Source: Minisyncoccia bacterium (GTDB lineage: Bacteria > Patescibacteriota > Minisyncoccia > Phycocordibacterales > Phycocordibacteraceae). From it: a stretch of DNA of 64,000 bases. A program made the translations under genes and the position numbers. Shown here one piece after another: positions 3,975 through 36,064 of the stretch (its first letter is position 1; every line of letters begins with the position of its first letter). Where the stretch lies: NCBI GenBank assembly GCA_038212075.1, contig JBBQUV010000002.1, positions 7,343 through 71,342 on the forward strand, given 5' to 3'. The notes beneath the pieces were generated by a model that made no database searches, had not been told where the DNA came from, and was given only the letters and a program-made list of their open reading frames with translations.

Positions 3975-4018
3975 TTCTTCATTGTACCAAGCGAAGCCAG
4001 CGCGCTATCATTCATAGT

Positions 4019-12326: not shown

Positions 12327-13427
12327 CTACTGATTCATCGGCATCACCAAGTACAAGAATGAAGCCTCTCCTGTTCCGCGAATAACAAGAGGTCGCCCAA
12401 TACCGCCGGAAGAGAGCGTGAGGTTGTCTGCGGTAATAAGGGAAAGAGGCGCCGCAAGGTAGCGGTGGTTAAACGAAAGCTCAATACCTTCACCTGATAC
12501 AGCACCGAGCAACTCTTCATTAGACTCACCAATATCTGCATTTTTTGAAACGAAAGAAACCTTTTTATTTTTTACATCAAGCCCAAGACGCACTTTTTGG
12601 AAGGTGTCTGAAAACACCGATACGCGCCGTAGTGCCGCCTCAAAGTCCTTACGGAGTACTGTGGCCTCGGCATTGAATGTTTTTGGGATAATCTGCGTGT
12701 AGTCTGGATACTGAGCGGCAACAAGGCGTGTAGTGACAACACCGCCTTCCCAAGAAAAGGCACATTGGTGTTCATCAAGAGAGAGTTTTACCTCTCCGTC
12801 GGGAAGCGTCTGAAGAATATCAACTGCATTTTTTGCTGGAATAAGTACCGAAAATGGCTTCGTTGTTTTTTCTACTGGAATCTTTTTTTCAGCGAGACGG
12901 AAAGAATCGGACGCGACAGCTTTCAACATTCCACCCTCACCTGAAAGGTACACACTCGCGAGTTCGGGGCGTACTGTTGACGGAGAGGCACACGTAACAA
13001 CTGAACCAATAAGCTCTCGAAGAAGAGTTCCAGAAAGAGTAAGTGTTTTTTCCGGTGTGTCTGGAATAGGGATAATAGGAAAATCTTCTGCAGAAAGTGT
13101 TTTGATAGTACTTTTCCCTACTCCTGACGTCATGACAATTGTGTCCCCAGCATGCTCGAGAGTTACCGTACCAGAACCAAAAAGAGAACCGGCAACCTCT
13201 CGTAAGATATTCGCAGGAAGAACAGCGATTCCTGTTTTCTTTATAGATCCTTCAATACGAAGATCAATACCGGTTTCAAGATTCGTTGCTCTGAGTTTTA
13301 TTCCGTCGTCGCCTGCAACAATAGCAATTCCTGAAAGTGCGGCGAGTGTCGCAGATCGTCGTTCAGCAAATCGAGCGACCTGCTGAACAGCTTCCGTGAA
13401 TATCTTTTTTTCTATTGTAATAACCAT
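12327..13427 (-). CDS. dnaN: DNA polymerase III beta sliding clamp.
   Basis: 366 aa, N-terminus MVITIEKKIFTEAVQQV. Three-domain beta-clamp length. Directly downstream of dnaA. Confidence 0.85.
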   Translation of the reverse strand: MVITIEKKIFTEAVQQVARFAERRSATLAALSGIAIVAGDDGIKLRATNLETGIDLRIEGSIKKTGIAVLPANILREVAGSLFGSGTVTLEHAGDTIVMTSGVGKSTIKTLSAEDFPIIPIPDTPEKTLTLSGTLLRELIGSVVTCASPSTVRPELASVYLSGEGGMLKAVASDSFRLAEKKIPVEKTTKPFSVLIPAKNAVDILQTLPDGEVKLSLDEHQCAFSWEGGVVTTRLVAAQYPDYTQIIPKTFNAEATVLRKDFEAALRRVSVFSDTFQKVRLGLDVKNKKVSFVSKNADIGESNEELLGAVSGEGIELSFNHRYLAAPLSLITADNLTLSSGGIGRPLVIRGTGEASFLYLVMPMNQ

Positions 13428-13628
13428 ACCTATTATTATTAGGGGTGTTGATAGGTGGAGAACGTGAAATACTTCAGTGTCTGCAAGCTCAAATCACGAG
13501 CGAATTTTTTATAGTGTGAGGAAAAGGCAGGGAAGATTTTTTCCTCTTTTTTATATGTGGGGAAAACAGCAGACTTTTCCCCAGCGGCCACTACAGTTGT
13601 TAGAATGTTTTTCATAGCCTTATCCACA
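13428..13628. promoter_or_regulatory. Candidate oriC region. It holds a perfect DnaA box TTATCCACA (about 13620-13628), one-mismatch box-like elements (ATCAACA near 13440, TGTGGGGAA near 13545) and AT-rich tracts.
   Basis: Read from the sequence. The dnaA-dnaN intergenic position is the canonical origin location in many bacteria. Confidence 0.5.
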
Positions 13629-14975
13629 TCATACCAACAAGCTACGCACGTCTTGAATCTCTTTAGCGAGTACTGCGTCGTCACCTACTTCCCTTTTTAT
13701 TTTCTCGCACGAGTGAATGACGGTGGTGTGGTCGCGCCCACCAAGCTTGGTACCGATGGTTGGATACGAAACACTGAAGTCTTCACGGAGAATATACATA
13801 ATTACCTGGCGCGGCCGCACCACTTCCTTCCGACGCGTCTTTTCGTAGATGCTTTCTTCGTCGATACCGTAGAATTCTGCAACTTTTGAGACCACGTTCT
13901 TAATAGAAACCGTTTTTGTGGGGCGTGAGAACGAACGGAGAGACTGACGAATCTCGGCGAGGTCGGGCGGCGTACCCCGCACTTGTGCGTGGCACACCAC
14001 CGAATTGATAACCCCCTCAAGTTCACGGATAGACCCCGGTACCGAAGTAGCGATGTATTCAATGACCTCTTCACTGATAGCGATGCCGTGTGCGGCAATC
14101 TTTTTTCGCACAATCGCGATGCGTGATTCAGTATCCGGTTCTCCAATATCAATCGTCATCCCGCTTGCAAGGCGTCCACGTAACCGTTCGGCAATGTCAG
14201 GGATGGCGGCGGGTGCTCTATCCGAGGAGAAAATAATTTGTTTGTTGTTGTCGTAGAGCGCATTAAAGAGGTGGAAGAGCTCTTCCTGCATTTTTTCTTT
14301 TTTAGAAAGGAACTGAATGTCGTCCATAATCAACAAATCGAATTGGCGATACTTTTCTTTGAAGCGGTTTGCCGTGCCCGCACCAATAGAATCGGTGTAA
14401 TCAACACCGAATTTTTCCGAAGTAAGGTAAAAAACTTTTCGATTTGGGTAGAGTTTCTTAAATTGGTTACCAATAGCTTGGATAAGGTGGGTCTTTCCTC
14501 TTCCTGTGTCTCCATAGAGAAAGAGCGGGTTGTAGGTGATGCCGGGTCGAGCGATTGCCGCCTCTGCCGCTTTGTACGCGAGTTCATTGAACGCACCGAT
14601 GACAAAGGTATCAAAGGTGTAGCGTGGGTTCAGGTTGTCACTTTTATTTATGTAGAACTCATCAAGCGGTAAACGATTTTCTTCTCGCACTTGGCGGATT
14701 TCTTTTGGTTTACGGCGATCATCTTTCACAATAAGGTATTCAATGTTGCGATACTCGTACGAAACGGAACGAATGATTTTAAGAAGAAGCGAATTAAACT
14801 TCTTTAGATACCAGTCGCGAAAAAATTGGCTTGGAACACCCACATATACGATACCGTCTTCAATTTTTACGATAGAGCTATCGCGAAACCATGTGTTGAA
14901 GTTGGCAGGGCTCACTGAAAGTTCTACCTGGGTTAGGGCGTGTTCCCAAAGCTCTCGAGGATCGGAACGATTCAT
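13629..14975 (-). CDS. dnaA: Chromosomal replication initiator DnaA.
   Basis: 448 aa. AAA+ Walker A GDTGRGKTHL and the C-terminal DNA-binding signature (DHTTVIHSCEKI). Confidence 0.95.
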   Translation of the reverse strand: MNRSDPRELWEHALTQVELSVSPANFNTWFRDSSIVKIEDGIVYVGVPSQFFRDWYLKKFNSLLLKIIRSVSYEYRNIEYLIVKDDRRKPKEIRQVREENRLPLDEFYINKSDNLNPRYTFDTFVIGAFNELAYKAAEAAIARPGITYNPLFLYGDTGRGKTHLIQAIGNQFKKLYPNRKVFYLTSEKFGVDYTDSIGAGTANRFKEKYRQFDLLIMDDIQFLSKKEKMQEELFHLFNALYDNNKQIIFSSDRAPAAIPDIAERLRGRLASGMTIDIGEPDTESRIAIVRKKIAAHGIAISEEVIEYIATSVPGSIRELEGVINSVVCHAQVRGTPPDLAEIRQSLRSFSRPTKTVSIKNVVSKVAEFYGIDEESIYEKTRRKEVVRPRQVIMYILREDFSVSYPTIGTKLGGRDHTTVIHSCEKIKREVGDDAVLAKEIQDVRSLLV

Positions 14976-15063
14976 TGACCGTCATTATACGCGCCGATGC
15001 CAATCGGGGAAGCGTTGCGGCACAGGGGAGAACCTGTTAACATCATGTGTATAACGAGAACCT

Positions 15064-15201
15064 ATGGCAAAACGAACCTACCAACCAAAAAAGAGAAAAC
15101 GAGCAAAAACACACGGATTCCGTGTACGTATGAAAAGTCCGGGAGGCCGCCGTGTTATTACGCGTAGACGCCAAAAGGGTCGTCGCAAGCTCGCCGCCTA
15201 G
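15064..15201 (+). CDS. rpmH: 50S ribosomal protein L34.
   Basis: 45-aa [48 protein letters not shown]. Below the ORF-track cutoff. It sits in the canonical position upstream of rnpA. Confidence 0.85.
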
Positions 15202-15205
15202 CCTC

Positions 15206-15520
15206 ATGATGCCCCGCGGGCGCCGCCTTCCTCGCGCCGCCTTCCCTGCACTCCTGCGGGCAAAAAGGCTCTCTAGCCCTCATTTTGGGGTTTCTGTCGC
15301 TTCTGCCCCACGGGGTGGGTGTGCGGTGGTCATACCCAAAAAAGCCGTACCCCACTCGGTTGATCGGCATCTTTTGAAACGTCGAGTACTTTCCGTGCTT
15401 AAAAAGTGGTATGCCCCCCATATGGCACTTGTGGTGTATGCAAAGAATGGGAGCTCCACCCTTCCCTTCCGCATTATCCAGAGCGAACTTGAGGCACTTC
15501 TTGGTAAACTCACTGTATGA
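15206..15520 (+). CDS. rnpA: Ribonuclease P protein component.
   Basis: RnpA-like basic protein (RLSSPHFGVSVA..., KKAVPHSVDRHLLKRR). The likely start is MMPRGRR at about 15206, not the track start at 15152. Follows rpmH. Confidence 0.75.
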   Translation: MMPRGRRLPRAAFPALLRAKRLSSPHFGVSVASAPRGGCAVVIPKKAVPHSVDRHLLKRRVLSVLKKWYAPHMALVVYAKNGSSTLPFRIIQSELEALLGKLTV

Positions 15521-16254
15521 TTTCCTTTCTCTTCCACACTTATCTTTCCCTACCAATCTACAACCTTCTCATTTTTCTTGTTGGCATCATTCCAACAGGA
15601 GATGTGGGTGTCGCGGTTATTGTTGTGACGCTCGTGGTGAAGGCGGCAGTACTTCCCCTCTCTCTTTCAGCGGTTCGCACCCAGCGTTCGATGAAAGTTA
15701 TTGAACCTGAGTTGAAAGAAATAAAGGAAAAGTATAAAGACGACAAAGAAAAACAAGCAAAAGAAACGTTCGCCCTCTACAAAAAGTACAGCATCAACCC
15801 ATTTGCGAGCTTCGGTACACTTCTTATACAGCTTCCGATTCTACTCGCTCTCTACTGGGTATTTCGTGGAGAAGCACTTCCTACGATAGATGTAGCGTCG
15901 CTCTACCACTTCGTTGCTATCCCAACCGTCATATCCACGAACTTCCTCGGTATCTTTTCGGTAATACAAAAAAGTATTACTCTCGCTGTACTTGCGGCGA
16001 TAACGCAGTTTTTGCAGGCATATTTTGCTATCCCAACGCCGGCAAAAACCGAAAATGCAACCATGCAAGAAGATTTTGGCCGTGCCATGGCGATGCAAGC
16101 GCGGTTCGTCATCCCGCTTATTATTGGCCTTGTTGCCTATGAAACGTCAGGAGCCATCGCACTCTACTTCATAACGAGTAACGTCGTGATGCTTTTCCAG
16201 GAATTTTTAGTGCGTAGAACACCAGCAAAAATTTCCCCTCTAAAGACAGACTAG
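15517..16254 (+). CDS. yidC: Membrane protein insertase YidC/Oxa1 (short Gram-positive type).
   Basis: 245 aa and multi-TM. Conserved AVRTQRSMKVIEPELKEIKEKYKDD and the NP/FG region. Canonical rpmH-rnpA-yidC order. Confidence 0.85.
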   Translation: MISFLFHTYLSLPIYNLLIFLVGIIPTGDVGVAVIVVTLVVKAAVLPLSLSAVRTQRSMKVIEPELKEIKEKYKDDKEKQAKETFALYKKYSINPFASFGTLLIQLPILLALYWVFRGEALPTIDVASLYHFVAIPTVISTNFLGIFSVIQKSITLAVLAAITQFLQAYFAIPTPAKTENATMQEDFGRAMAMQARFVIPLIIGLVAYETSGAIALYFITSNVVMLFQEFLVRRTPAKISPLKTD

Positions 16255-17513
16255 AAACGATACGCCCAAAGTGAGTCGTCGCGTTTATTTACAAATGTCA
16301 GCGTGCTCTCGTTCGGGTCAACCGACAAAGAAATGGCGTCAATTGGTTCTTTGGTGAGTTCTGGCAGATTTGCTACGAGTGTCGCGGCGCGAGCGATAAG
16401 GTCAATTTTCCAAAGGCGATCGCTAAACGCGATTGTGCCCTGATACCACCCGTCGGGTAGTTTCCCCGAAGGGAGTGCTGTAGGCACGGCGCAGTATGCG
16501 CTTTGGTTGTCCGGAGACCACACACATTTTTCCGTAAGCGTTGCCACAGGAAGCGCTATGGTGGTGTGTGTTGCCGTATCGAACACACTAAGAGAAAGTG
16601 AACTGCCTGAAAGTGAACTTACAAGCACAAGTTTTCCAGAAGGACTTGGCAAGGCAGTAAGCCCCGGAAGAGGCCCCAGGATTTTGGTGAACGCCCCTGT
16701 TTTTCTATCAATCAAAAATGCGTATCCGTTTACAGAAGCCGAAGGTTTTGTATAGGCAAGAAGATTTGTTCCGGCAAATGAAACGTGGAGCGCTGAAAGA
16801 AGCGAGGTGAACACGGTTCCTCCGCCACTGCCGTCAGGTTTAGATATCGTCCCGACGGAACCGGAGGTGCTTGGCATAAAAGTGAACACTGTCTGTGTCC
16901 CCTGAGCAAGCACTTGCGAAAGGTCGCGCGCAAGGAACCTACCGTCCGTACCATCGGCCGGCAGTACATAGGTATCAATGTGCTCTGTTTTGTCCGGGTC
17001 AACCGTAAGGAAACGAATAAAAGCGTCGGATCCATCGGAGAGCCATGCTGTTTCCTGTACACCAGGCGCAGTGTGGTTAGTAAGGCGTACGCTCGTGCCC
17101 TGCATCACGTTATAGGTGTACATATTTCCACTCTGGCGATCTATGTAGCGTACTTCGGTGCGGAATGTCGGACCAGTATCAGTTGAAGTTGCATCAGTTG
17201 TTGAAGCAAGCGCGACCGGTGCCGTAGTGCTTGCGTTAATGATGAGCACTCCGTGAGCTACCGGTGACGACGTTATTTTAACTAAGTGAGGAGCAATAAG
17301 GGTGCCTGCAATGGGTGTGTCAGCAGTGTTCTGCGTTGTATCTGCTCCCTGTCCTCCTGAACTAGTGTCTTGGCTTGGTGTGCCAAACGGGTTAGCACCT
17401 GTGCCAGTCTGAGCAACGAGCCCACCACTTCCGTTAAAAAAGTAAAAGTACCCAACAACGATAAGGCCGAGAGCGACAATGGCGAGTGCGGCGATGGTAA
17501 GGGTGCGACGCAT
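16251..17513 (-). CDS. Secreted or membrane-anchored hypothetical protein, possibly a beta-propeller (TolB/PD40-like repeats).
   Basis: N-terminal TM/signal sequence, a Ser/Thr/Gly-rich linker, and repeats with WSPDN/DGSD-type motifs. It is the last gene of the minus-strand T4SS-like island. Confidence 0.4.
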   Translation of the reverse strand: MRRTLTIAALAIVALGLIVVGYFYFFNGSGGLVAQTGTGANPFGTPSQDTSSGGQGADTTQNTADTPIAGTLIAPHLVKITSSPVAHGVLIINASTTAPVALASTTDATSTDTGPTFRTEVRYIDRQSGNMYTYNVMQGTSVRLTNHTAPGVQETAWLSDGSDAFIRFLTVDPDKTEHIDTYVLPADGTDGRFLARDLSQVLAQGTQTVFTFMPSTSGSVGTISKPDGSGGGTVFTSLLSALHVSFAGTNLLAYTKPSASVNGYAFLIDRKTGAFTKILGPLPGLTALPSPSGKLVLVSSLSGSSLSLSVFDTATHTTIALPVATLTEKCVWSPDNQSAYCAVPTALPSGKLPDGWYQGTIAFSDRLWKIDLIARAATLVANLPELTKEPIDAISLSVDPNESTLTFVNKRDDSLWAYRF

Positions 17514-17520
17514 ATTTTTG

Positions 17521-18366
17521 TTATTGACACTCCGCGGTTAGCACGTACGTTGCCCCTGCACACGCTGGCGGTATGGCCAGCGGGCGTAGCGGCGAACTTG
17601 AGTTTTTATCGATACACCAATTTTGCTGTGAGGTTCCTGCTGGGCACTGAATCGTCGGGCAACTCTTGAGATCATTTGCAGGACACGCTTGGCTAGATTT
17701 TACTTTAGGTGTGCAGGAAATATAATTATACGTTCCATAACTACATTTATAGCCCCCAAGAAAATTTGTTTCGGTAACATTGTTTCCTTGAGCATCAGCA
17801 CATACATGGTTGGCGTCTGCACCGCCGGGGGTCTTTTCGCACTGAGCGATTTGTGGGTCACACGAAGCCGCATCGCATTTAAGCAATGTGTCGCCCTGTT
17901 TTAGGGGCGTTGATGACGCGAGCGCATCCGCATTTTGTTGCGACTGAGTCTGTGCAGGCTGGGTTCCTGTCGGTGTAAGGCCGCCGGCGTCGATATTCAG
18001 ATTCAATATGTTTGGGTTGATAACCGTAAAGACAATATACGGAGAAAGTACCAACAGAAGGCCAAGGAGTGCAGTAGTGATGATATGTTTTGCTTCTTCT
18101 ATTTTTGCAAAACCACTATCGCCCATGGTGTACATAACTCCCCCCCGCACAAGTTGTAGTACCGTTAGCACTACTGCTATCCCAATAGTAATTTTATAGA
18201 GTGCATTGAAGAAATTTGGGAGGCTCCCTGCCTTTGCCGCGTCTGAAAAAACAGGAATGTCAGTGAGCGGCACAAAAGCAGTTGGGGTAGAAGCAAGGGC
18301 AATTGATGGGATACCAATGAGTACCACTAAAAAGCCAATAAAGATGAAGCTAGAGCGATTGTTCAT
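17521..18366 (-). CDS. T4SS pilin-like protein (TrbC/VirB2-like topology) fused to a cysteine-rich C-terminal domain.
   Basis: A signal peptide, then two hydrophobic helices (LYKITIGIAVVLTVLQLV...ALLGLLLVLSPYIVF) as in VirB2/TrbC-like pilins, then a Thr/Gln-rich linker. The C-terminal domain of about 130 aa has roughly 14 Cys (CDAASCDPQIAQCEK...CADAQ...CSYGTYNYISC...CPANDLKSCPTIQCPAG...WC...ACAG...AECQ). Confidence 0.5.
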   Translation of the reverse strand: MNNRSSFIFIGFLVVLIGIPSIALASTPTAFVPLTDIPVFSDAAKAGSLPNFFNALYKITIGIAVVLTVLQLVRGGVMYTMGDSGFAKIEEAKHIITTALLGLLLVLSPYIVFTVINPNILNLNIDAGGLTPTGTQPAQTQSQQNADALASSTPLKQGDTLLKCDAASCDPQIAQCEKTPGGADANHVCADAQGNNVTETNFLGGYKCSYGTYNYISCTPKVKSSQACPANDLKSCPTIQCPAGTSQQNWCIDKNSSSPLRPLAIPPACAGATYVLTAECQ

Positions 18367-19343
18367 AGGCCAAAGAAGTTAGTGCCATTTGTTTGCCCAA
18401 AATGCACCGCAAGGGCAGCCTGCCCTGACTGATATGAACCATTTTGCGATGCCTGTGCGGAAAGTGCGGCGGTACCAGGGGTATCGCCTGTAGTTCGTAC
18501 GGTAATAATTGGATCGCTTCCGCTCACTTCCCCGTTCACGCTCCACGTAAATGCAGTCTCCCCTGAGAAGAAATAGGGAACGGCACGAAACGCATCTTCA
18601 CCGCCGTTCATTGAGAAAGAAGTTCCTATTGCCATATCGAAATTTGGTCCAGCAAGGGGGCTACTATGATAAATCACCATCAACGGGTCAACGGGCGCAA
18701 CGGTAATCGCAGTGTGTGCCGCCACACTACCATCTGGTGCTGAAACGGTGAGCGAAACATCGGTGTCGCGGTAGCGTATAGGTGCCGTTGCAGAAAGAAC
18801 CGAATGCCCAATACCTGACTGAGCGGTAAGTAGTTGATTACCTACTTTCCATGTATAGATGAGTGTTTCAGGTGCAAGTAATCCCTTGGCATTTCTAAGC
18901 TCTGGAAGTGCAATAAAACGGAGTCGACCCTCAGAAGCAATAAGATTTGCTCCTGCGTAAAAAGGATGGGTTGTCGACATCGGCTCCATCACAAGCGCCA
19001 CGCTCGCCGGACGGATGACTACTGTTTTTTGATACTTTCCTTGGAGCGATTCTATGGACACCACAATAGTGTCTACCGCTCCTCCCGCTCCAACTTGGAA
19101 CGCCGCTCCTTGTGAACCACTTCCCTTACTCAAGACCGTGCCATTTGCTGATATGGTGACAACAGCAGTTGCAAGGTCAACAAGGGTGCTTTGTGGAGTG
19201 ATCGTAACCGTTTCGTACGGTGCAGGGTACTGGGGAAAAATCCCAACCGTAAGCGGGTCGGCTCCGAGCATCTGAGCGTGCACTGGTATGGTGCAGGCAA
19301 GAATGGCAACACAGCTTCCTAAGAAAAATCCCCAATGTCGCAT
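18363..19343 (-). CDS. Secreted hypothetical protein in the T4SS-like island (signal peptide; probably beta-rich).
   Basis: N-terminus MRHWGFFLGSCVAILACTIPVHAQ looks like a signal peptide. No recognisable family motif. Confidence 0.4.
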   Translation of the reverse strand: MRHWGFFLGSCVAILACTIPVHAQMLGADPLTVGIFPQYPAPYETVTITPQSTLVDLATAVVTISANGTVLSKGSGSQGAAFQVGAGGAVDTIVVSIESLQGKYQKTVVIRPASVALVMEPMSTTHPFYAGANLIASEGRLRFIALPELRNAKGLLAPETLIYTWKVGNQLLTAQSGIGHSVLSATAPIRYRDTDVSLTVSAPDGSVAAHTAITVAPVDPLMVIYHSSPLAGPNFDMAIGTSFSMNGGEDAFRAVPYFFSGETAFTWSVNGEVSGSDPIITVRTTGDTPGTAALSAQASQNGSYQSGQAALAVHFGQTNGTNFFGL

Positions 19344-19392
19344 AGATAAAGTATACCGCCTCCATGCACATCATCGAAAAGTGCACTGGGTA

Positions 19393-20217
19393 CTAAACGA
19401 TGTACTTCATAATTCCGGAGGCATGCATTTTTTCAAGTGCTCCGTTGAATAGTTTGACGATTTTCTTTTCCTTATAGAACGCCATTAGTACGATAATGGT
19501 ATTTGCAGGGATAATTTGTAGAAACGGTATAATTTCAATAAGAATTGCAATAAAAAGGCGTTTCCAAAGCCACTTAATTACGGCTTTTTTCCACCAGCCG
19601 CCGCTAATTTTATTCCACGTCCACAACGTTAAGATGGCGCCGAGCACAATCCCTAAAAAAGAAGCAAGAATTACTCCAATACCTGTTAAATCTGCAGGTA
19701 GATCAAGAATATCTTTAGCAAGACCAACACTAAACATGAAAATAGGGAACGAAGGTTTGGCTGGCGGTGCCTCGGTCGCCAATTTTTGAGCATCAGTTGT
19801 ATGGAATTCCTCTCCTTTCTGTCTGAAGTCTTCCGCAATATCATCTAAGGTTTTGTGTATATGTGCACGTACGAGTTGAGGACTTACTCCATTTATGGAA
19901 TAGCGGGATCGCGAGGTAGTGACTTCGGACTCGCTTTCAGTTTCTTCTTCATATTCAGATTCTTCCTCTTCGGAATCTTGTGATTGTGTAGAAGAACGTA
20001 GTTGCTGGAACCGTCGTGTATTTCGTCCGTAGCGTGCAATTCCTGATTCAGTTTCAGCCGCACCAGCCGCCGCTCCCTCAGACGTTGCCGCACCCGCGGC
20101 TCCTTCAGCAGCGCCGGCTGCTCCAGTGGCAGCCAATCCTTCTGCGGCCGCTCCCCCTACAACCGCTCCTTCCGCCGCCCCACCAGCAACCGCTGCTGCA
20201 ACGATGAGTGGTGGCAT
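19393..20217 (-). CDS. Membrane protein with a low-complexity Ala/Gly-rich, acidic N-terminal region and C-terminal TM helices.
   Basis: N-terminus (GAAEGAx)n, then SEEEESEYEEETESESE, then a C-terminal hydrophobic segment with Trp-rich amphipathic stretches. T4SS island member. Confidence 0.4.
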   Translation of the reverse strand: MPPLIVAAAVAGGAAEGAVVGGAAAEGLAATGAAGAAEGAAGAATSEGAAAGAAETESGIARYGRNTRRFQQLRSSTQSQDSEEEESEYEEETESESEVTTSRSRYSINGVSPQLVRAHIHKTLDDIAEDFRQKGEEFHTTDAQKLATEAPPAKPSFPIFMFSVGLAKDILDLPADLTGIGVILASFLGIVLGAILTLWTWNKISGGWWKKAVIKWLWKRLFIAILIEIIPFLQIIPANTIIVLMAFYKEKKIVKLFNGALEKMHASGIMKYIV

Positions 20218-20220
20218 AGA

Positions 20221-22050
20221 TTATTGCGCTCCCCCGCCGCCTTCCGCGTCTAACCGATCTTTTTCACGCTTTATAGAAAGGAGTTGTGAAGGATCGGAAG
20301 TGATAATTTGGTCTTCGGTGTATGACGCCACTATTTTTATGGCAACGTGTTTAAGCCCTGCAAAAAAGAGCCCCTCCCCTACTCCGGATTCAAGAAGCAG
20401 ATATTTTTCCTCGTCGGTAAGATTGAACGTTTTCTGGAGCACATCAATAGTGGTCGGTGATTGTTTTAATAAAAGCTGGATAGAAGAGTTTGTCAGAATG
20501 GGGCGCCCGTATGGTGAGGTTAAGAAGTCTTCAACGTCTTGGGTGATAGTTGCAACACCAAGGAAGTATTTGCGTCCGCGTTTTGCAAGCGAATAGAGGA
20601 ATGATGCCGTATCTTCCGACTTCATCATCCACCACGCTTCGTCGATAACAAGCAGACGTTTTTTGAGCTCACGACGAATGGCATTCCAAATGAAGTGCGT
20701 GATGATATACATCGCCACCGGTTTTAGTTCGTCTTCCATATCTCGCACCGAGAACACAATGAATTGTTTGTTGATGTCGACGTTTGTTGGCTGGTTTAAG
20801 AAACCTGACCACGTACCATGGGTATATTTTGACAGACGTTGCACCAGCGACTCACTTCCTTCCATGCCAGAAAGCACGGCTTCAAAGTCGGAGAGGAGTG
20901 GTGGCTCTACACCGCTAAAGTCACGATCGCCTGAAATATCTTTTAAGGCATAGGTCTCACTAATGGCACGGTCAACAATAGCGTCTTCCTCTGGCGTGAG
21001 CCCGCCAAGCATAATGCGGAAGAGTCCAACAAGGGTGATGATGTTAGAGCGAAGAATATCGCCTGGTTCCTCCCCTTCTCGTACTACCGGAAGATCAAAG
21101 GGGTTGATGTGGTGTTCACTCGAAAGAGAAATATCGAACATGCGTCCACCAGCCGCTTCCGCAAGATATTCATACTCACGTTCTGGGTCAATCACAATCA
21201 CGTCGGTATCAAACATAAGCGAACGAAGAATTTCGAGTTTCACCGCAAATGACTTTCCGGAACCAGACTTTGCAAAGGTTACGGAGTTGTAGTTTTCAAG
21301 CGAGAATCGATCAAAAAGAATGAGCGAAGAGTTATGGCGGTTAATGCCAAAGAGAATGCCGTGGTCACTCGTAAGATCAAATGATACAAACGGAAAGATA
21401 GAAGAAAGTGGCGAAGAGTTGAGTTTTTGATGCACATTCAATTCATCAAGTTCCAGTGGAAGTGTGGAGCGGAAACCTTGTTCCTGTTGAAACAGTGCTG
21501 GCTTTGTATATACGAGCTTCGCATCCAAAATACCGCGAATTTCACCCTCAACCTTATCCAATTCTTCTTTTGAGTTTGCGTAAAGGGTCATATAGAGCCC
21601 AATCTCAAAGAGTTTTTCCTGCACTTGTTGGAGTTGATCGCGCAGATTTTCAATATCTTGGTATGCCGTATCAAGCATTGGGTCGCGTACCAATCCTTTT
21701 TGTTCGCGTTCTGCTATCTGGCTCTGCACTTCCGCGACTTTCTTTTGAAATTGACGAAGCACCTCACCTGTTTCAAGTGGGTGTATGAAAATACTGATAT
21801 CAAGTACTTGGTCGAGGTTAATGATGGGCGTAAACCAACTATCAGTCAAAAAGCGTGGATAGGAAATAGTGTAGTAGGAACGGGCAAATTTTTCGCCAAG
21901 TTCAAGTTCGCGAGCACTTACTTTGAGCGCCGCCGGCGCAATCATGTCGGCTAAATCAAGTGCGCCCTGCGCATAAATATCACGCGGCAAAATCGGCGTA
22001 ATTTTCGGGTCTTCTTTTTTCCCGCGATTAAGAAAATCAAGTAATGCCAT
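20221..22050 (-). CDS. virB4: VirB4/TrbE/PrgJ-family T4SS ATPase, C-terminal NTPase part.
   Basis: 609 aa. Walker A AKSGSGKSF and Walker B LLVIDEAWWMM, with VirB4-like length and arrangement. Confidence 0.75.
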   Translation of the reverse strand: MALLDFLNRGKKEDPKITPILPRDIYAQGALDLADMIAPAALKVSARELELGEKFARSYYTISYPRFLTDSWFTPIINLDQVLDISIFIHPLETGEVLRQFQKKVAEVQSQIAEREQKGLVRDPMLDTAYQDIENLRDQLQQVQEKLFEIGLYMTLYANSKEELDKVEGEIRGILDAKLVYTKPALFQQEQGFRSTLPLELDELNVHQKLNSSPLSSIFPFVSFDLTSDHGILFGINRHNSSLILFDRFSLENYNSVTFAKSGSGKSFAVKLEILRSLMFDTDVIVIDPEREYEYLAEAAGGRMFDISLSSEHHINPFDLPVVREGEEPGDILRSNIITLVGLFRIMLGGLTPEEDAIVDRAISETYALKDISGDRDFSGVEPPLLSDFEAVLSGMEGSESLVQRLSKYTHGTWSGFLNQPTNVDINKQFIVFSVRDMEDELKPVAMYIITHFIWNAIRRELKKRLLVIDEAWWMMKSEDTASFLYSLAKRGRKYFLGVATITQDVEDFLTSPYGRPILTNSSIQLLLKQSPTTIDVLQKTFNLTDEEKYLLLESGVGEGLFFAGLKHVAIKIVASYTEDQIITSDPSQLLSIKREKDRLDAEGGGGAQ

Positions 22051-22052
22051 AG

Positions 22053-22751
22053 CTACTGTGGTCGATCATACACTGCCGGACTCGCTCCTTGCTGGTGTAT
22101 CGGACTTTCAAGCTCACCCAAGTTGAACGAACGGTACAAAAGTTCAATTACTTCTTCGGTACCAAGTGCCGCGGCACGCACGCCTGAACCCGAGAGCCCA
22201 CCAGCAACAAGCGACATGCGTTGCTCAAGCTGTATGCGGTGTTCATCAAAGGATGTTGTAAATTCAGTCGCTCCTGACCCTGACGAGTGACCAAGAAATG
22301 GCAATGATGTCTTTATGGCACTGATACCGGGAGCACTGTATGGCACGATGACGTAGAACGTTTTTGCCATAATGTTTGCGGCATCGGAAAATCCGCGTAC
22401 AAATTGTATATACTCGCGTACCTGAATTTTCATTAGCTCTGTTCCCTGGAGCGGTTCGCGCTCAGCCAGAAGTGACAAGTACGGACGGATATCCATTTTG
22501 CGAGAGTGCACTACAATTTGGATTGAAAAATCAAGGGTATTTAAAAAGTTTTGGAATCCGCCAATAATTCCACGCTGTTCGTCTTCTGATTTCAGCGCGA
22601 AGTTGACTGACGAACACATAAGTACGCCGCGATAACCACCGTCTTTAAGGAGAATAACGCCGTTGCGTACTTCTTTCACAGGAACAAATGTTTGTGTGGC
22701 TTTTGTGTCAGGCATATTACTGATCGAGCTGTTCGTTACTGCGTATGTCAA
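22053..22751 (-). CDS. VirB4 N-terminal domain-like protein, encoded as a separate ORF directly upstream of the ATPase part.
   Basis: 232 aa. VPVKEVRNGVILLKDGGYRGVLMCSSVNFALKSEDE resembles the N-terminus of Gram-positive VirB4 homologs (PrgJ/TcpF: I.LKDGSY..V.E...INF.L). Its stop codon abuts the start codon of 20221..22050. Confidence 0.5.
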   Translation of the reverse strand: MTYAVTNSSISNMPDTKATQTFVPVKEVRNGVILLKDGGYRGVLMCSSVNFALKSEDEQRGIIGGFQNFLNTLDFSIQIVVHSRKMDIRPYLSLLAEREPLQGTELMKIQVREYIQFVRGFSDAANIMAKTFYVIVPYSAPGISAIKTSLPFLGHSSGSGATEFTTSFDEHRIQLEQRMSLVAGGLSGSGVRAAALGTEEVIELLYRSFNLGELESPIHQQGASPAVYDRPQ

Positions 22752-23145
22752 GCGACCACGCTAGGTCGTGAAGCTTCCCGCGAGTGAGTCCAAGTTTTGC
22801 ACGAGCGTTTTTATCTGTCTTCGGTGCCGCTTTCGGCGTCATTGCCTCAATCTCTTTGTCGGTTTTAGGTATTTTTTTCCATAAATACAGCCTCCCTCCC
22901 GTGAAGTATACAAACCCTGCTTCCAAAATATCTTCAAAAGGCTTGTTGTTGACGCGGTAGAACGCCAGTGCACCTGTAAGTCCAGCAACAGGAAGCGCAA
23001 CAAGGACAGCAAAAAGTAACGGAAGGTAGAAAAAAGCGATAGCGCATACGCCCGCACCGCCCGCAATATAAATAAATTGCTTCAGCGTGAATGGTCCGAA
23101 AATCTTATCTTCAATCTCAATGAATTGAGGAACTTGGTACTCCAT
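22717..23145 (-). CDS. PrgI/TcpE-family (VirB3-like) T4SS membrane protein.
   Basis: MEYQVPQFIEIEDKIFGPFTLKQFIYIAGGAG... followed by two TM helices. This matches the PrgI family consensus (VP..i..edkifG.lTlRQ). It sits immediately upstream of virB4, as in Gram-positive conjugation loci. Confidence 0.6.
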   Translation of the reverse strand: MEYQVPQFIEIEDKIFGPFTLKQFIYIAGGAGVCAIAFFYLPLLFAVLVALPVAGLTGALAFYRVNNKPFEDILEAGFVYFTGGRLYLWKKIPKTDKEIEAMTPKAAPKTDKNARAKLGLTRGKLHDLAWSLDIRSNEQLDQ

Positions 23146-23183
23146 TCCTTTAGTATATCAGCCCGCACACGCACATTGCGTCG

Positions 23184-23777
23184 TTAATGACTGCTAGAAG
23201 ACGCGGGCTTGCTTGAGCCACTTGCTGACTTACCCGCACCTCCACCACTGCCAGCAAATTTTCGAATTTGCACGCCAAGCCATCCTATAAGAAATGGAAA
23301 TCCAAACAACAACTCAAGAGCACCCATACTCATTCCAATTGAAGCACCAAACCCAACCGTGTGGCCAGTAAGTGCCGCCGCACCAGAATAAGAAGCTGCC
23401 CCAGCCCCCGCGATACCTGCCGCCGCCGCGCTCCCTGCCCCAGCGAGTGTCCAGAGAGCAACAGCTCCTGCCCCGCCAGTAAACGATGCCCCACTTGCGT
23501 ACCCACTTCGCATAAGGGAAAAGAGAGACTTTTTTTCAACAGAAGGTACCGCCGCGGTTTGCGGCGGTACAGTATTCGGCTGAACACCTACCGACTCATT
23601 TGGTTGCACTGCCCCTCGCTCACGTAATTGCTGGAGACGTTCCGCACGTACCGTTACCGTTTCGGGGTCTGGTGGAGACACAACGGGATTACTTTCAACC
23701 GTTACCGGTTGTTCTTGCGTTACTTCGTCTTGGTGAGGGTTCTGTTCTAGACCTCGTTCGGGGGTTGATTCAGCCAT
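23184..23777 (-). CDS. Small membrane protein with Gly/Ala-rich hydrophobic helices. A second pilin-like protein is possible.
   Basis: 197 aa. Polar Pro/Gln-rich N-terminus, then two Gly/Ala-rich hydrophobic segments and a Ser/Gly tail. Confidence 0.35.
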   Translation of the reverse strand: MAESTPERGLEQNPHQDEVTQEQPVTVESNPVVSPPDPETVTVRAERLQQLRERGAVQPNESVGVQPNTVPPQTAAVPSVEKKSLFSLMRSGYASGASFTGGAGAVALWTLAGAGSAAAAGIAGAGAASYSGAAALTGHTVGFGASIGMSMGALELLFGFPFLIGWLGVQIRKFAGSGGGAGKSASGSSKPASSSSH

Positions 23778-23799
23778 TACCCACTAGAATACCACTTCT

Positions 23800-24657
23800 C
23801 TATTCGGGTGTTTCGCGGTACGGATCAACACCATAGTTTTTAAGTACCGCATGGAGTGAATCTTTTGTTGTTGGCGCGGCGGTTGTTTGAGGGTCTTGTG
23901 CCGGCGTTCCAGCTGGCGTTGGTCGCCATTGCGGTTGTACAGGCGGCATCTGTGGAGGTTCAGGCAGTATTGGTGTTGGTAGCGGAACTGGAACAGAAAC
24001 GGGTTGTATGTAAGGAGCCATAGACGGCAGTTGTGCAGGAAGCGGTGTAGGTACGCTTGGCACAGACGGTATCGAAGAATATGACGCAGGTGGCATCGTT
24101 GGCATAGGAAGCCCTGTTTCTTTTGGAGCAAGGGGTTCATATCGCGGCATAGTTGGTGCGGATTCTTGGGGGATCTCCGGTTGTTTAATCGGGGCACTTG
24201 CTTGTGCAAAAATTGCAGGCGGTGGCGGTGGTTGCTTTACCGGCATGGGCGCTACATATAAAGGAGCGCTTTCTTCGGGGATAGGCGTTGCGACCGGCGT
24301 GGGTGCGGGTATGGGTTCCGGTGTTGGTTCTTCTTGAGGCTCCGCCGGTGGCGCATTACGTATTTCATCGCGAAGTACCTTGAAAACTCGCTCGTTCAAC
24401 GCACTAATGATTGCGTCTGCGCTTGCGTCCGGTACCCCCATTTGGGCAAGTTCAGACTGGAACTGCACGGGACTTGAAAGCCCAAGGAGCATATTTGTTG
24501 CCGCCTGCGCGATTAGTCCAACCGTGTCTACATGCAGTCCGTAGGTTCCTGCCAGTTCTTGTAATAATTCAAAGAGTTTTGTGCTCGCAATATACGCACG
24601 TACCGGTTCCGGTAGTTTTTTATATGCATCACCCATTTGTTCAGGAGTAGGATTCAT
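23800..24657 (-). CDS. Proline-rich hypothetical protein.
   Basis: 285 aa. Helical N-terminal domain of about 100 aa, then long PxP-rich low-complexity sequence. Confidence 0.4.
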   Translation of the reverse strand: MNPTPEQMGDAYKKLPEPVRAYIASTKLFELLQELAGTYGLHVDTVGLIAQAATNMLLGLSSPVQFQSELAQMGVPDASADAIISALNERVFKVLRDEIRNAPPAEPQEEPTPEPIPAPTPVATPIPEESAPLYVAPMPVKQPPPPPAIFAQASAPIKQPEIPQESAPTMPRYEPLAPKETGLPMPTMPPASYSSIPSVPSVPTPLPAQLPSMAPYIQPVSVPVPLPTPILPEPPQMPPVQPQWRPTPAGTPAQDPQTTAAPTTKDSLHAVLKNYGVDPYRETPE

Positions 24658-24662
24658 ACGTT

Positions 24663-26933
24663 TTATATTCTGCGTCCGCGATTACGCGTGTTATCTCCAG
24701 CCGCCCCTCCCGCACTGCGGTAGTTATTGGCATTACTCGACTGCGTTCCACCTCCGGCAGGCGCGGCGGGTGGTGCTTTTACCTTCCAGTTCATTTGACC
24801 GGCGGAGAATGGGTTTTTGGCAAAATATGCTTCGATATCTTCACGCTGCTTCCCTGTCGTCGTCAGAAGTTCAGTACGTAATTGCTCAAGCTGTTTCGGA
24901 TTGAATTTATTTTTTGTGAGTGCGGCTTGAATAGCAGATGCATCAAAGGCTTTCAGAAGTTGTTTGTTTTTAACAATAACCTCAGCCTCAACTTTCATTT
25001 TCGTTTCCGCATTCATGTTGTTCCAAATCTGGAGGGACTCAGGATGACCGCGCTCAATTCTTCCGGCAGGCGTGTTTTGTCGCGCCATTTTACGGAGCGA
25101 ATCTGACAAGTCGTCACTTTTATCCAATGCTTCCAATTGGGTCTCCTTAAGCGCACTCTTAAATTCCGTAGTGTCATGCTGGATAATTCTCTTGAATTTC
25201 TCGTTGTCTGCCTTTGCCAATTGAACCAAATCCTTAGTAGTGAGATCTTTCGCGTTTGATTCATCGTAGCGTGCAAAACGAGCTGTACCCATTTTATGTT
25301 GAACATCTTCAGGCACTTCCTTGCTATCCATCAGTTTTGCAAATTTCTCCGGACTCAATACCTCACCAAGTTTTTTAACTTGCTCGTCGCTCATAGTCTT
25401 AATAGCCTCCTCAAGACCGTGCAAGTTCATCTCACGAGCGCGACCCTCAGCTTCTTCCTTATCTGCTGGGTTACCGCTTTGTGCCTTATCGAGAGCATCT
25501 TTCAAATCCTGCCCCTCAAGTGCAAGGTGCAATTCTTTGCCGCGTTCTTTCAGTTCTTTCTCACGATCATCATGTGATTGGAAACCTCCAATTTTTGCGC
25601 CAGAGGCACCCTTTAGACCAGAATTGATACCATCATCAACGGCTGTGCCCGCAAACCCAACTGCCCACTTCCCCACTTTGCCACCAAGTGTTGTTGGCTT
25701 CCAGAGGGCGTGTTTCTGCGCACGTTGCCCCGCTTTTACGTTGTATGCCTTTCTGAGTGCCGCGGCACCACGGCCAACAGTTTCGCGACCAAGAACGGCA
25801 AAAGGATACGACACCGCTTTCGTAGCAATGTTTGTGGCAAACGCCGCTCCATAGGCACCCATCTCTTTTGCCACCGTAAGTGCGGTAATCAGAAAGCCAA
25901 TGACAAGAGCGAAAAGAAACAGTGTGGAGAATGTCCCTGGCCCGCTTGGGTTAAACATGTCGGTAAGAGGGGCGCTAAAAAGATCGGGATTAGACGCGGC
26001 AACACCTTCGCCTATTTTGAGACCGACAAACACTAAGAGAAGAAGCACGGGAGCAAAAAAGGACTGCGCAAGAAGCGTATCCCACCATTTTTTGGCATAG
26101 CCCTCAAGAAACGGCACGGCAAGACCCGCAAAACCGATAGGTGAAAGCACCATAAGAAATACCAGCACCACCGCGCGAGTCATAAGCATGATGGCCATCG
26201 CTATCAATACCATCATTAACACCAACTCAACGACAGAGAGGCCCAGATACCCTGTAAGTCCAAAGTCGTATTTAAACCCGGGGTGTATTACGGTATTTAC
26301 TTTACTGTCACCCATTATCATTCCTGCAACTCCATAGTTCGGATTTGCAGCACAGCTTGTATCTAAAAATGACTTTTTCAAACAACCACTCCCATCTTGG
26401 TTGATAGATTGGCTGTAAAGAGCCGCACTTAAAACGTTCGACACATCAATAATTGCTTGAGACGCGAGAAGACTGAAGTTTAAAAGCACGGCAAAAATGA
26501 TAAGGCGTGGGAGCGTTTTTTTCACTTCGTAGCCATGGATGTCAAGAATGGTTGCAACGCCCATAAAGACGAAACCAAATATGAGTCCGATGTTGGCTAC
26601 ATCGCGAAGTACACCCCAGCCCGCGTAGATACCTCCATTTTTCCCAAGGAAAGCGGCAAATCCAAAAACAGTTTCCGAAATAATAATATTAAAAAGAAAT
26701 GCGGTAATGGAAAGAAAAACACCAATAAGTTCATAAATGGCATACCCAATACCGCTAAACGCGCAGGTAATTGGGCTACCGACACAGCCGACAAAATTAA
26801 ATAAAGCATCCGTTGCTCCAGCATGAGCAACTATTGGTACTTCAAGAATCAATACCAGTACAAAGACAGATAAAATGCGCCAAGGCCCTTTACCGTAGGT
26901 GGCGAAGAGTTTTTTAAAGGTAGTCCTCACCAT
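24663..26933 (-). CDS. VirB6/TrbL-like polytopic membrane protein with a large C-terminal charged coiled-coil domain.
   Basis: 756 aa. At least six TM helices in the first 400 aa or so, then a hydrophilic Lys/Glu-rich region. Domain architecture and position within the T4SS island support the call. Confidence 0.5.
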   Translation of the reverse strand: MVRTTFKKLFATYGKGPWRILSVFVLVLILEVPIVAHAGATDALFNFVGCVGSPITCAFSGIGYAIYELIGVFLSITAFLFNIIISETVFGFAAFLGKNGGIYAGWGVLRDVANIGLIFGFVFMGVATILDIHGYEVKKTLPRLIIFAVLLNFSLLASQAIIDVSNVLSAALYSQSINQDGSGCLKKSFLDTSCAANPNYGVAGMIMGDSKVNTVIHPGFKYDFGLTGYLGLSVVELVLMMVLIAMAIMLMTRAVVLVFLMVLSPIGFAGLAVPFLEGYAKKWWDTLLAQSFFAPVLLLLVFVGLKIGEGVAASNPDLFSAPLTDMFNPSGPGTFSTLFLFALVIGFLITALTVAKEMGAYGAAFATNIATKAVSYPFAVLGRETVGRGAAALRKAYNVKAGQRAQKHALWKPTTLGGKVGKWAVGFAGTAVDDGINSGLKGASGAKIGGFQSHDDREKELKERGKELHLALEGQDLKDALDKAQSGNPADKEEAEGRAREMNLHGLEEAIKTMSDEQVKKLGEVLSPEKFAKLMDSKEVPEDVQHKMGTARFARYDESNAKDLTTKDLVQLAKADNEKFKRIIQHDTTEFKSALKETQLEALDKSDDLSDSLRKMARQNTPAGRIERGHPESLQIWNNMNAETKMKVEAEVIVKNKQLLKAFDASAIQAALTKNKFNPKQLEQLRTELLTTTGKQREDIEAYFAKNPFSAGQMNWKVKAPPAAPAGGGTQSSNANNYRSAGGAAGDNTRNRGRRI

Positions 26934-26936
26934 ACG

Positions 26937-28388
26937 TTAGTGCAGGATCGTACTGCACGATGTGGCAATGTTTTTCATTTGCGTATAGAGCGACGGGGCA
27001 GAATTGTCTTTGGTATCTTGGGACTCAGTCTCTGCATAAGCTAGGTCAGTAGCGGAAGGCATAGAAGGGTCATGGAGCGCATTTTGAAATTCTATTCCTA
27101 CATCCGCAGTTTTTGTAGCATCAGATCCGGCGGCAGTGGCGTCCGTCTGGACTTTTTGTAAAAGGCTAAGAGCAGTTGTTGCTTTAGTGAGCGCCGCGCC
27201 AGCATCGCTCAGTGTTTTTGTTACGAGCGCGGTATTTTGGTCATTTGCTCCAGTCACACAACTGGTAAGTGCTGTTTGTGCGGTCTTTGCTATCGACTGA
27301 ATCGTCTGCCAATTTGTTTGAAACTGCGTTATGTCTTTTGTTTGAGACGCAATAGCATCGCTTACATTTCCGGAAATATTTCCTGCGGCACCGTTGTACT
27401 GAGAGGGGTCGGTTGCCTTATCGATAAACCCGTTACCGCCCGAAGAAACGGAAGAAACACCAGAGAGCCCACTGCCACCAAGTACATTACTGGTAAGTTG
27501 AGACATAAGCGCACTTACTATTTCGTTAAATTCGTCTGCCGTCACAAGAGTGTCCCCTGTAAGACCAAGTGTTTTGTTTATCTGTGATTGAATCACGGAT
27601 CCGGGTGTTTGGACGGGGCCACATCCAGAGCCAGAGGTGTCACGTGCGCCGAGTTGTACTGTGGCCTCGGAACCCGAGGAACCGCCACTCGGGCAATTGC
27701 GCCACGAAAGGAATCCATTGCCCCAATCGAGCTCGGTCTTTTGAACGGTTTTTGCCGTTTCAGTTTGATTCGATAGCTCCTCCTGGCCAAGACGCTGAGC
27801 GCCCAACGGATTGTTTTCCGGATTTGCAACAGCAGAAAAGAATGCGCTAATACCACCCTTAGAAAAATCGCCACCAAGAAACGCCGTATCGTCAGGAGTT
27901 ACTTTATTTAATGTGTAGGGGTGTGATTGGGTAAACGAATCTTTACTGGTTGAAAGATAGTATTTGCTCCCTACGCTTTGGGCAATTTGGCTTTGAAATG
28001 GCGAACGAAGCGCGGGGTCGCTTGCGAGTTTGGCGAGGAAACTACCTGCAACACGGTCGCTCACTTGCTGAAGGGTGCTGGTAAGGTCGGTTACGAAGGC
28101 CGGCGAGCCTTGGAATCCAGAATTAATCCAATTCACCATACTTTTGGTCATCGTTTGGATAGCCATTTTGCTCACCATCCACGCAAGAGGGTCAAGGGCG
28201 AACTCTTTATTATTCGTCGCAAATTGGAGCGCCTTCGTGGCGATCGCGATGATATGGGTAGCCCCTGTTTGAATTTCGGTTACGATATCTTCAACCGGGT
28301 ACGCATATGCCGGTTTTGGGATGCTCCAGAATGAACCGCTAAGGAGCAAAAGTGCGATGAGCGCAGATGCGAGTGATCGTTTTTTCAT
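26937..28388 (-). CDS. Secreted hypothetical protein (signal peptide; Ser/Thr/Gly-rich).
   Basis: N-terminus MKKRSLASALIALLLLSGSFWSIPKPAYA. T4SS island member. Confidence 0.4.
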   Translation of the reverse strand: MKKRSLASALIALLLLSGSFWSIPKPAYAYPVEDIVTEIQTGATHIIAIATKALQFATNNKEFALDPLAWMVSKMAIQTMTKSMVNWINSGFQGSPAFVTDLTSTLQQVSDRVAGSFLAKLASDPALRSPFQSQIAQSVGSKYYLSTSKDSFTQSHPYTLNKVTPDDTAFLGGDFSKGGISAFFSAVANPENNPLGAQRLGQEELSNQTETAKTVQKTELDWGNGFLSWRNCPSGGSSGSEATVQLGARDTSGSGCGPVQTPGSVIQSQINKTLGLTGDTLVTADEFNEIVSALMSQLTSNVLGGSGLSGVSSVSSGGNGFIDKATDPSQYNGAAGNISGNVSDAIASQTKDITQFQTNWQTIQSIAKTAQTALTSCVTGANDQNTALVTKTLSDAGAALTKATTALSLLQKVQTDATAAGSDATKTADVGIEFQNALHDPSMPSATDLAYAETESQDTKDNSAPSLYTQMKNIATSCSTILH

Positions 28389-36028: not shown

Positions 36029-36064
36029 GCGCGCATCGTAGCACTCGCCGCCCAAAGGAAGCAA

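Follow-up and report, generated by a model that had tools for sequence, protein, structure and literature searches.

The gene described here encodes a pilin of VirB2-like type which is continued, within the same reading frame, by a C-terminal domain with 12 cysteines, and it is the only pilin gene found in an origin-proximal T4SS operon of monoderm type in a Paceibacteria-like Patescibacterium, a member of the ultrasmall CPR bacteria. With a probability of roughly one half, the exchangeable outer domain of this pilin is the adhesion or host-recognition part of the system. The functions proposed for the gene in the following were all derived computationally. The window, i.e., the whole stretch of DNA that was analysed, has a length of 64 kb, and within it the gene and its parts are arranged as follows:

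17521..18366, minus strand: the complete gene, whose 281-aa product is a VirB2-like pilin (T4SS_pilin type) ending in a 12-Cys domain (from the ORF and its homologs)
18292..18366, minus strand: residues 1-25, a signal peptide for which SPase I cleavage is predicted at ALA↓S (from the hydropathy profile)
17992..18291, minus strand: pilin core, residues 26-125, comprising FVPLT, a helix at 49-81, a loop, a helix at 86-116 and INPNILNLNI (from AF2 and the PF18895 alignment)
17896..17991, minus strand: flexible linker of about 32 aa, residues 126-157, in which T, Q, P, G, S and A are frequent (from composition)
17704..17895, minus strand: Cys module A, residues 158-221, with six Cys at 164, 169, 176, 189, 208 and 218 (from sequence comparison)
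17524..17703, minus strand: Cys module B, residues 222-281, with six Cys at 228, 236, 241, 251, 269 and 280 (from sequence comparison)

The ORF extends from an ATG start to a TAA stop in a single unbroken frame, and its position agrees with that given in the first-pass annotation. With its first 4 nt (ATGA) the gene overlaps the end of its upstream neighbour, an arrangement that is also present in the related loci L002, L004, L005 and L006. According to hydropathy, a hydrophobic, signal-like segment comprises residues 6-25 and ends in SIALA↓STP, where the predicted cleavage site was read by eye; downstream of this site the FVPLT motif is conserved in family alignments. Two helices, both hydrophobic, were modelled by AlphaFold2 (AF2) at residues 49-81 and 86-116 with pLDDT values of 80-90. 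Hydropathy and AF2 hence agree with the signal and two-helix architecture first proposed for the N-terminal third of the protein, except that this part makes up about 44% of it. The C-terminal extension of 156 aa starts with the linker, in which residues 135-152 have a pLDDT below 50, and continues with a Cys-rich span of 117 aa. Relatives possess low-complexity tails or linkers in the position equivalent to residues 126-157.

That the genes of a pilin and of a Cys-rich secreted protein were merely joined by a frameshift or by mis-assembly is scarcely credible, and this reading was rejected: the frame is uninterrupted, a Logan assembly independent of this one contains the gene for the identical protein, and the fusion of core and Cys domain recurs with conserved cysteines in the proteins P0003, P0005, P0035, P0151 and P0153 from other samples. 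The fusion of both parts in one ORF, as claimed at the outset together with the suggestion to look for it in related genomes, is therefore confirmed.

Identification as a pilin was approached by profile searches and by homologs. The profile PF18895 (T4SS_pilin) scored the full-length protein with 8 bits (E 4) and the core alone with 16-17.4 bits (E 0.005-0.013), in both cases below the gathering threshold of 26.6 bits; the alignment of the core spans profile positions 4-70 of 71. The same profile matched 20 of 25 homologous cores, which are 40-72% identical to that of the query (best E 1.7e-9), and PF04956 (TrbC/VirB2) matched eight of these 25 weakly (best E 2.5e-4) and gave no match to the protein of the window. 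With the protein as query 34 homologs were retrieved, whose cores are 40-74% identical, and a profile of the homologous cores retrieved 587 proteins, many of them already annotated as PF18895; the homolog P0003 is named 'pilin [Candidatus Paceibacterota bacterium]' by NCBI. Compared with its syntenic orthologs the core displays 57-58% identity, and it retains the family motifs N54, G76, G102-L103-L105 and INP at 116-118. Relatives of solved structure were found by sequence neither with the core profile nor with the single protein, and a Foldseek search of the full-length model against the PDB yielded helical-hairpin noise only (best E 0.5). Judged from homology, the link of the gene product to the T4SS pilins can be called firm at the family level. 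The VirB2/T4SS pilin type given in the first-pass annotation thus holds with respect to the family and to the operon context, and does not hold for the protein itself at the Pfam cut-off; the lack of any pilin-profile match had been named there as something that would refute the assignment, and what was found is a full-length alignment to PF18895 below the threshold and robust matches of the homologs. As they fall below the Pfam threshold, extended pilins are probably undercounted in surveys of Patescibacteria T4SS pilins that rely on HMMs.

In the family as a whole bare pilins dominate, and the best 120 of the 587 matches to the core profile all have a length of 115-170 aa. Among the nearest homologs 24 of 34 are longer than 185 aa, the long ones possessing C-terminal extensions of 70-246 aa and several of them also about 30-180 aa between signal peptide and core. 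A scan of GTDB with a narrow core alignment resulted in five loci, and three further GTDB species representatives encode proteins of 339-350 aa with other Cys-containing C-terminal domains. The fusion was initially regarded as unusual, which is true in comparison with canonical VirB2, TrbC and TraA and with most members of PF18895, but not within its own lineage.

The C-terminal domain contains 12 cysteines rather than the approximately 14 first reported, all of them in residues 164-280 and separated by x4, x6, x12, x18, x9, x9, x7, x4, x9, x17 and x10. Of the spacings described earlier, CPxxxC was found again (CPTIQC), whereas C-x3-C and C-x5-C were each off by one, since CDAASC represents C-x4-C and is followed by C-x6-C. 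All 12 cysteines (12/12) are kept in P0151 and P0153 at a domain identity of 40% and 37%, respectively. Module A shares 42% identity with P0003 over 69 aa (pairwise E 8e-12), and ten pilin fusions have its six Cys columns in common, with the exception of the first Cys of P0006, which is unaligned. Module B is common to P0151, P0153, P0003 and P0005 and is probably a diverged duplicate of module A; hhalign aligned both modules with a probability of 78% (E 1.8e-5, 44 columns), and a shuffle test on the single sequences gave no significance (the score was reached in 34 of 500 shuffles). The number of cysteines in the C-terminal extensions of 40 family members is even in 32 of the 35 non-zero cases (binomial p = 2e-7, a value that ignores the relatedness among the members). 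Because 12 cysteines are kept at an identity of 37-40% and even numbers are in excess, the pattern goes, on these comparisons, beyond chance.

The domain is almost certainly extracytoplasmic; the even Cys numbers of the extensions, the invariance of all 12 cysteines at 37-40% identity and the FN3 domain that relatives have in its place speak for its exposure. An ORF with a CxxC motif of the DsbA-like or thioredoxin-like (thiol-oxidoreductase) kind was not present in the 64-kb window. The model of the domain is of moderate confidence (pLDDT 73, pTM 0.52), and residues 140-281 matched the described Cys-rich and adhesin families neither in sequence nor in fold (Pfam, NCBIfam and PDB folds). The structural comparison of the C-terminal domain that had been proposed at the beginning hence returned no known fold, and with it no direct sign of a binding function; a 'disulfide-knotted' and 'receptor-binding' character, as the domain was first described, is what we infer for it. 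When the domain alone was compared with an index of 5.8 billion proteins, nothing was retrieved up to an E of 1. As a profile, the domain was searched against 1.84 billion cluster representatives and matched nine proteins at E up to 1e-3, 9/9 of which have it C-terminal to a pilin core. Among these 1.84 billion representatives the Cys domain is exclusive to pilin cores.

In relatives other domains were found at the same place. An FN3 domain takes the position of the Cys domain in P0009 (E 4e-13) and, just under the cut-off, in P0014, and a Cys module of the form GGPF..AC...CSC..EQG..C precedes the core in P0035 and follows it in P0009 and P0010 (E 1e-10 and 7e-8). Since one Cys module occurs at either terminus, both termini must be in the same compartment, and this fits a two-helix hairpin with both ends outside.

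The position of these modules also bears on the reading that the C-terminal region is a pro-domain or released cargo, which is cleaved in maturation and leaves a small pilin, the Cys piece being discarded or secreted. C-terminal trimming is known from RP4 TrbC, which loses 27 residues, and from R27 TrhA, which loses 5 (PMC12037004), and a flexible linker between core and domain would suit such a cleavage. However, similar Cys modules are also present N-terminally, after the signal peptide, where processing of this kind is unknown, no match to a TraF-like or S26-like peptidase was obtained among the operon genes scanned, and a folded 12-Cys or FN3 domain would be a costly leader for a reduced genome, which together make this reading very improbable.

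How far the outer domain is exchanged can be seen in the closest relatives. In the nearest genome (L004) DnaA is 96.7%, VirB4 93% and the pilin core 58% identical, and the C-terminus of its pilin consists of FN3 and a different Cys module, which has no homology to the domain of the window. The more distant L002 (DnaA 92%, VirB4 85%) has module A in common at 42% identity, and in L007 the pilin slot is occupied by a bare pilin of 154 aa. From the comparison of these three loci it follows that the outer domain has been swapped while the operon has remained fixed; in terms of sequence the pilin slot is modular, harbouring a bare pilin, the 12-Cys form or FN3 with another Cys module. The nearest orthologs of the Cys domain are only 37-42% identical, so that its synonymous sites are saturated. 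Diversification driven by a DGR was considered as well and is not supported, as no template repeat for the pilin gene was detected by blastn in the 64-kb window; gene against window gave no second copy of more than 23 nt, with the exception of a 42-nt match of 71% identity inside the gene itself.

The genes accompanying the pilin in the operon are the following:

22717..23145, minus strand: PrgI/VirB3-like membrane protein, 142 aa (70-73% identical to orthologs annotated PF12666 PrgI)
22053..22751, minus strand: TrsD/TraC-like relative of the VirB4 N-terminal domain, with a gene of its own (weak NCBIfam matches)
20221..22050, minus strand: VirB4-like ATPase of the monoderm (CD1110) type (NCBIfam NF045971)
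19393..20217, minus strand: highly variable membrane protein, 274 aa, between VirB4 and the 326-aa gene (ORF)
18363..19343, minus strand: upstream secreted protein, 326 aa, translationally coupled to the pilin by the 4-nt overlap (ORF)
16251..17513, minus strand: downstream membrane-anchored protein, 420 aa, last gene of the operon (ORF)

The VirB4 gene, located three genes upstream of the pilin, matched NF045971 above the cut-off (E 3.2e-114) as well as the P-loop_TraG family of Pfam (E 2e-25), and its product is 85-93% identical to its orthologs. The weak NCBIfam matches of the 22053..22751 product are to VirB4 N-terminal regions and to TrsD, and its orthologs belong to PF26593 (TraC-like). 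The 274-aa membrane protein, with a faint hint of TrbL, shares 24-29% identity with orthologs of 142-278 aa. The slot of the 326-aa gene encodes 326-331 aa in L002, L004, L005 and L006 and 254 aa in L007; with its orthologs in L002 and L004 the 326-aa protein shares 50-56% identity, and it had no match in Pfam, NCBIfam or PDB. The 420-aa protein is conserved in 5/5 related loci (411-419 aa) and shows a weak hint of an eIF2A beta-propeller. By sequence, relatives of solved structure were not found for the genes neighbouring the pilin. The operon is convergent with yidC and adjoins rnpA, dnaA and dnaN, and five related loci (L002, L004, L005, L006 and L007) share this gene order. The operon genes scanned include no recognised relaxase or coupling protein and gave no matches to VirB5/7/9/10. 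The T4SS of Patescibacteria was reported to be located near dnaA, dnaN, rnpA, rpmH and ksgA, mostly without a relaxase, and to include TrsD, PrgI and VirB2-like pilins (PMC12102498); the layout found here matches the published one (PMC12102498). In Southlakia epibionticum, T4SS genes and pilins were found to be essential for epibiotic growth (PMC10633639).

Only one pilin-core gene is contained in the 64-kb window, and one is contained in each related T4SS operon (five loci over 16-21 kb each); beyond these 64 kb, further pilin genes may exist. A filament, if there is one, would therefore be decorated on each of its subunits, and with one pilin-core gene in the window and one per related operon the 'tip domain' of the first-pass annotation is not favoured. 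A minor or tip pilin, or an initiator subunit, with a bare major pilin from elsewhere building the shaft and the Cys-rich adhesin at the tip, would be in accordance with the several pilin genes of many Patescibacteria (PMC12102498), with the bareness of most PF18895 members (115-170 aa in the best 120 matches) and with the 64 kb that represent the examined part of this genome. We regard it as unlikely, because no second pilin-core ORF was found in the 64-kb window or in the five 16-21-kb loci, the bare pilin of L007 in the same slot makes this slot look like a regular pilin position, and conservation of the core is no lower than in bare relatives. A further point in its favour is that large domains are hard to fit into a VirB2-type lattice, where a sheath radius of about 75-80 Å is needed. 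Estimated by volume for the lattice of the H-pilus (C5 symmetry, rise 12.14 Å, outer diameter about 90 Å), 16 kDa per subunit fit if the sheath has this radius, and a 16-kDa decoration of every subunit is, on this model, dense but feasible.

The reading preferred here, a pilin with an exchangeable outer domain for adhesion or host recognition, supposes the following steps. The protein would be exported via Sec and its signal peptide cleaved, after which the modelled hairpin would reside in the membrane, its two termini facing outward. The 156-aa extension would then fold extracytoplasmically into a two-module, beta-rich structure with probably six disulfides. VirB4 and its partners would extract and polymerise the pilin, with the C-terminus, by analogy with solved conjugative pili, on the outer face of a filament or of a cell-wall-spanning conduit, and every subunit would display its Cys-rich domain on a flexible linker. 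To our knowledge no solved conjugative pilin has a globular domain, and polymerisation of a pilin bearing a 16-kDa appendage would have no precedent among them. In solved conjugative pili the termini are exposed outward and the loop between the two main helices faces the lumen; for H-pili (TrhA), a surface position of the joined termini and a lumenal position of the alpha2-alpha3 loop are described in PMC13031515 and PMC12037004. This analogy to a solved pilus and the same-compartment termini argue for an exterior display of the C-terminal domain, which most likely would be an exchangeable adhesin spread over the exterior of pilus or channel and not confined to the tip.

The same features could be explained by a surface protein that does not polymerise, the hairpin being a membrane anchor or a channel subunit of the translocon and the Cys domain a static adhesin or a wall-spanning spacer. 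Gram-positive-type T4SSs are generally without pili (PMC10633639, PMC12857230), linker and domain could span a monoderm wall, and although a 'potential to elaborate conjugative pili' was ascribed to the T4SS of Patescibacteria (PMC12857230), no T4SS pilus has been observed in them so far. However, the conserved core motifs argue for a function in assembly beyond anchoring, and the pilin array of S. epibionticum is essential (PMC10633639), so that we consider a non-polymerising surface protein unlikely.

If the exchangeable, polymerising pilin is accepted, the conserved core would be responsible for structure and the outer domain for adhesion or recognition of the host surface. The latter would stand in for the separate adhesins of Gram-positive T4SSs and also for the multi-pilin arrays of other Patescibacteria classes. 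PrgB-like adhesins are undetected in Patescibacteria (PMC12102498), and because of this and of the domain exchange between close relatives we infer, as the most economical reading, that the fused domain is the adhesin or host-recognition module of the system.

Publications already cover the T4SS of Patescibacteria, where it lies on the chromosome and the VirB2-like pilins belonging to it. In the literature on these pilins no description of folded Cys-rich or FN3 extensions was found, and such extensions on Patescibacteria T4SS pilins are apparently undescribed. We know of no VirB2-type pilin with a globular domain; the present one would be the first with a folded domain and would test what the lattice of a conjugative pilus accommodates. 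It is possible, if doubtful, that in this Paceibacteria lineage a filament of a single pilin, in which each subunit carries an exchangeable disulfide-bonded domain (12-Cys, FN3 or other Cys modules), forms a sheathed 'adhesin pilus' that sets the host range. If true, this pilus would be unlike any solved conjugative pilus, and the swapped outer domain would decide which host cells the epibiont attaches to and exploits. Patescibacteria represent a large share of uncultivated bacteria, and a modular, rapidly exchanged, disulfide-rich outer domain would be a testable candidate for their host-recognition element. For the one genetically tractable member, T4SS and pilins were found to be essential for life on the host (PMC10633639).

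The closest known counterparts are the PF18895 pilins of Patescibacteria, for example the array of S. epibionticum ML1 and the pilin of Nanosynbacter lyticus TM7x, which possess a homologous signal peptide and two-helix core (PMC10633639, PMC12102498) and are likewise encoded in a chromosomal, dnaA-proximal T4SS cluster of monoderm type with VirB4, TrsD and PrgI/VirB3. They differ in having about 115-170 aa and often occurring as arrays of 2-11 divergent paralogs, whereas here one gene is present per operon read, with an extension of 156 aa composed of linker and 12-Cys domain. With VirB2 (T-pilus), TrbC (RP4), TraA (F) and TrhA (R27) the protein has the helical hairpin after a signal peptide in common, and by analogy the termini are expected on the exterior of the filament and the loop toward the lumen here too. 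Those pilins are mature peptides of about 70 aa, some of them cyclised or C-terminally trimmed, and originate from diderm systems with VirB5, VirB7, VirB9 and VirB10; in contrast to this canonical TrbC/VirB2 context, the pilin studied here is accompanied by a monoderm VirB4 of the CD1110 type, PrgI and TrsD.

Pilins and minor pilins of the type IV pilus (T4P) resemble it in combining a helical assembly module with an exposed, disulfide-stabilised, variable and adhesive C-terminal domain, but belong to an unrelated superfamily and machine. The protein of the window has neither the class III signal (G↓F/M-x-x-x-E) nor the single long N-terminal helix of T4P pilins, and instead displays a signal of SPase I type (ALA↓S) and a two-helix hairpin. 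PrgB of pCF10, the adhesin of a Gram-positive T4SS, is comparable in the proposed role, attachment to the target cell in a monoderm FATA-type T4SS; it is a separate, large and wall-anchored protein, whereas in the present case the pilin itself bears the putative adhesive module. The VirB2 paralogs of Bartonella and Anaplasma, finally, offer another case of an exposed T4SS pilin that has diversified, presumably in matching host surfaces (PMC12102498), but there by duplication of small pilins and here by the swapping of whole domains on the termini of one pilin.

When compared over its full length with PF18895, the Pfam family of Patescibacteria VirB2-like pilins (T4SS_pilin), the window pilin (17521-18366, minus strand) reached only an E-value of 4. 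The extended pilins of its clade scored under the Pfam gathering threshold, and five further homologs (P0003, P0008, P0012, P0017 and P0022) gave no match whatever to this profile. Extended pilins were thus probably missed in published HMM-based counts of Patescibacteria pilins. Among the homologs, a second type of Cys module and an extension of another kind were located as follows:

P0035 residues 24-100, P0009 residues 251-335 and P0010 residues 208-246: second type of Cys module
L011, a separate locus, 2767-3999 (+): 350-aa pilin, MAG labelled Saccharibacteria

The second module, with the motif GGPF[ST]..AC.A.Y...CSC...EQG..C, lies N-terminally, before the pilin core, in P0035 and C-terminally, after it, in P0009 and P0010, which points to shuffling of modules between both termini. 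The C-terminal extension of the L011 pilin contains an internal repeat (...DACAKII....KV.GGGCSG.K...) unrelated to the Cys domain of the window pilin. Elsewhere in the window, the Cys-rich ORF 36005-36550 (+), an ATG ORF of 181 aa whose stop-to-stop frame (35981-36547, 189 codons) holds 17 Cys, is probably no gene, as almost its whole length is covered by a 560-aa ORF on the opposite strand.

The operon features considered here are:

12327-29401: entire T4SS operon with flanking genes
19393-20217 (-): variable 274-aa protein
20221-22751 (-): VirB4 function as two neighbouring genes in different frames
24663-28388 (-): large proteins of 483 aa and 756 aa, conserved and encoded after operon gene 1
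28385-29401 (-): operon gene 1, bacterial TSP3 (calcium-binding) repeat just below the Pfam cut-off

Most divergent in the whole operon was the 274-aa protein (24-29% identity with its orthologs, which range from 142 to 278 aa), with an N-terminal half rich in Ala, Gly and Glu, C-terminal transmembrane segments and only a faint hint of TrbL. Family and PDB matches were sought for the 483-aa and 756-aa proteins and none were found; together with the product of operon gene 1 they are candidate wall-spanning or VirB6-like components.

VirB4 is divided into a TrsD/TraC-like N-domain of 232 aa and a P-loop VirB4 of 609 aa. Each of the five related loci shows the same split (208-211 aa and 604-607 aa), which rules out a frameshift as the cause, and the two-gene VirB4 is therefore a natural arrangement. 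Its N-domain gene corresponds to TrsD, as described for Patescibacteria T4SS (PMC12102498). The operon is flanked on one side by the adjoining yidC, rnpA, dnaA and dnaN and on the other by ksgA (RrnaAD, 29468-30313) and a UvrD helicase, and its position is the origin-proximal one reported for T4SS clusters of Paceibacteria.
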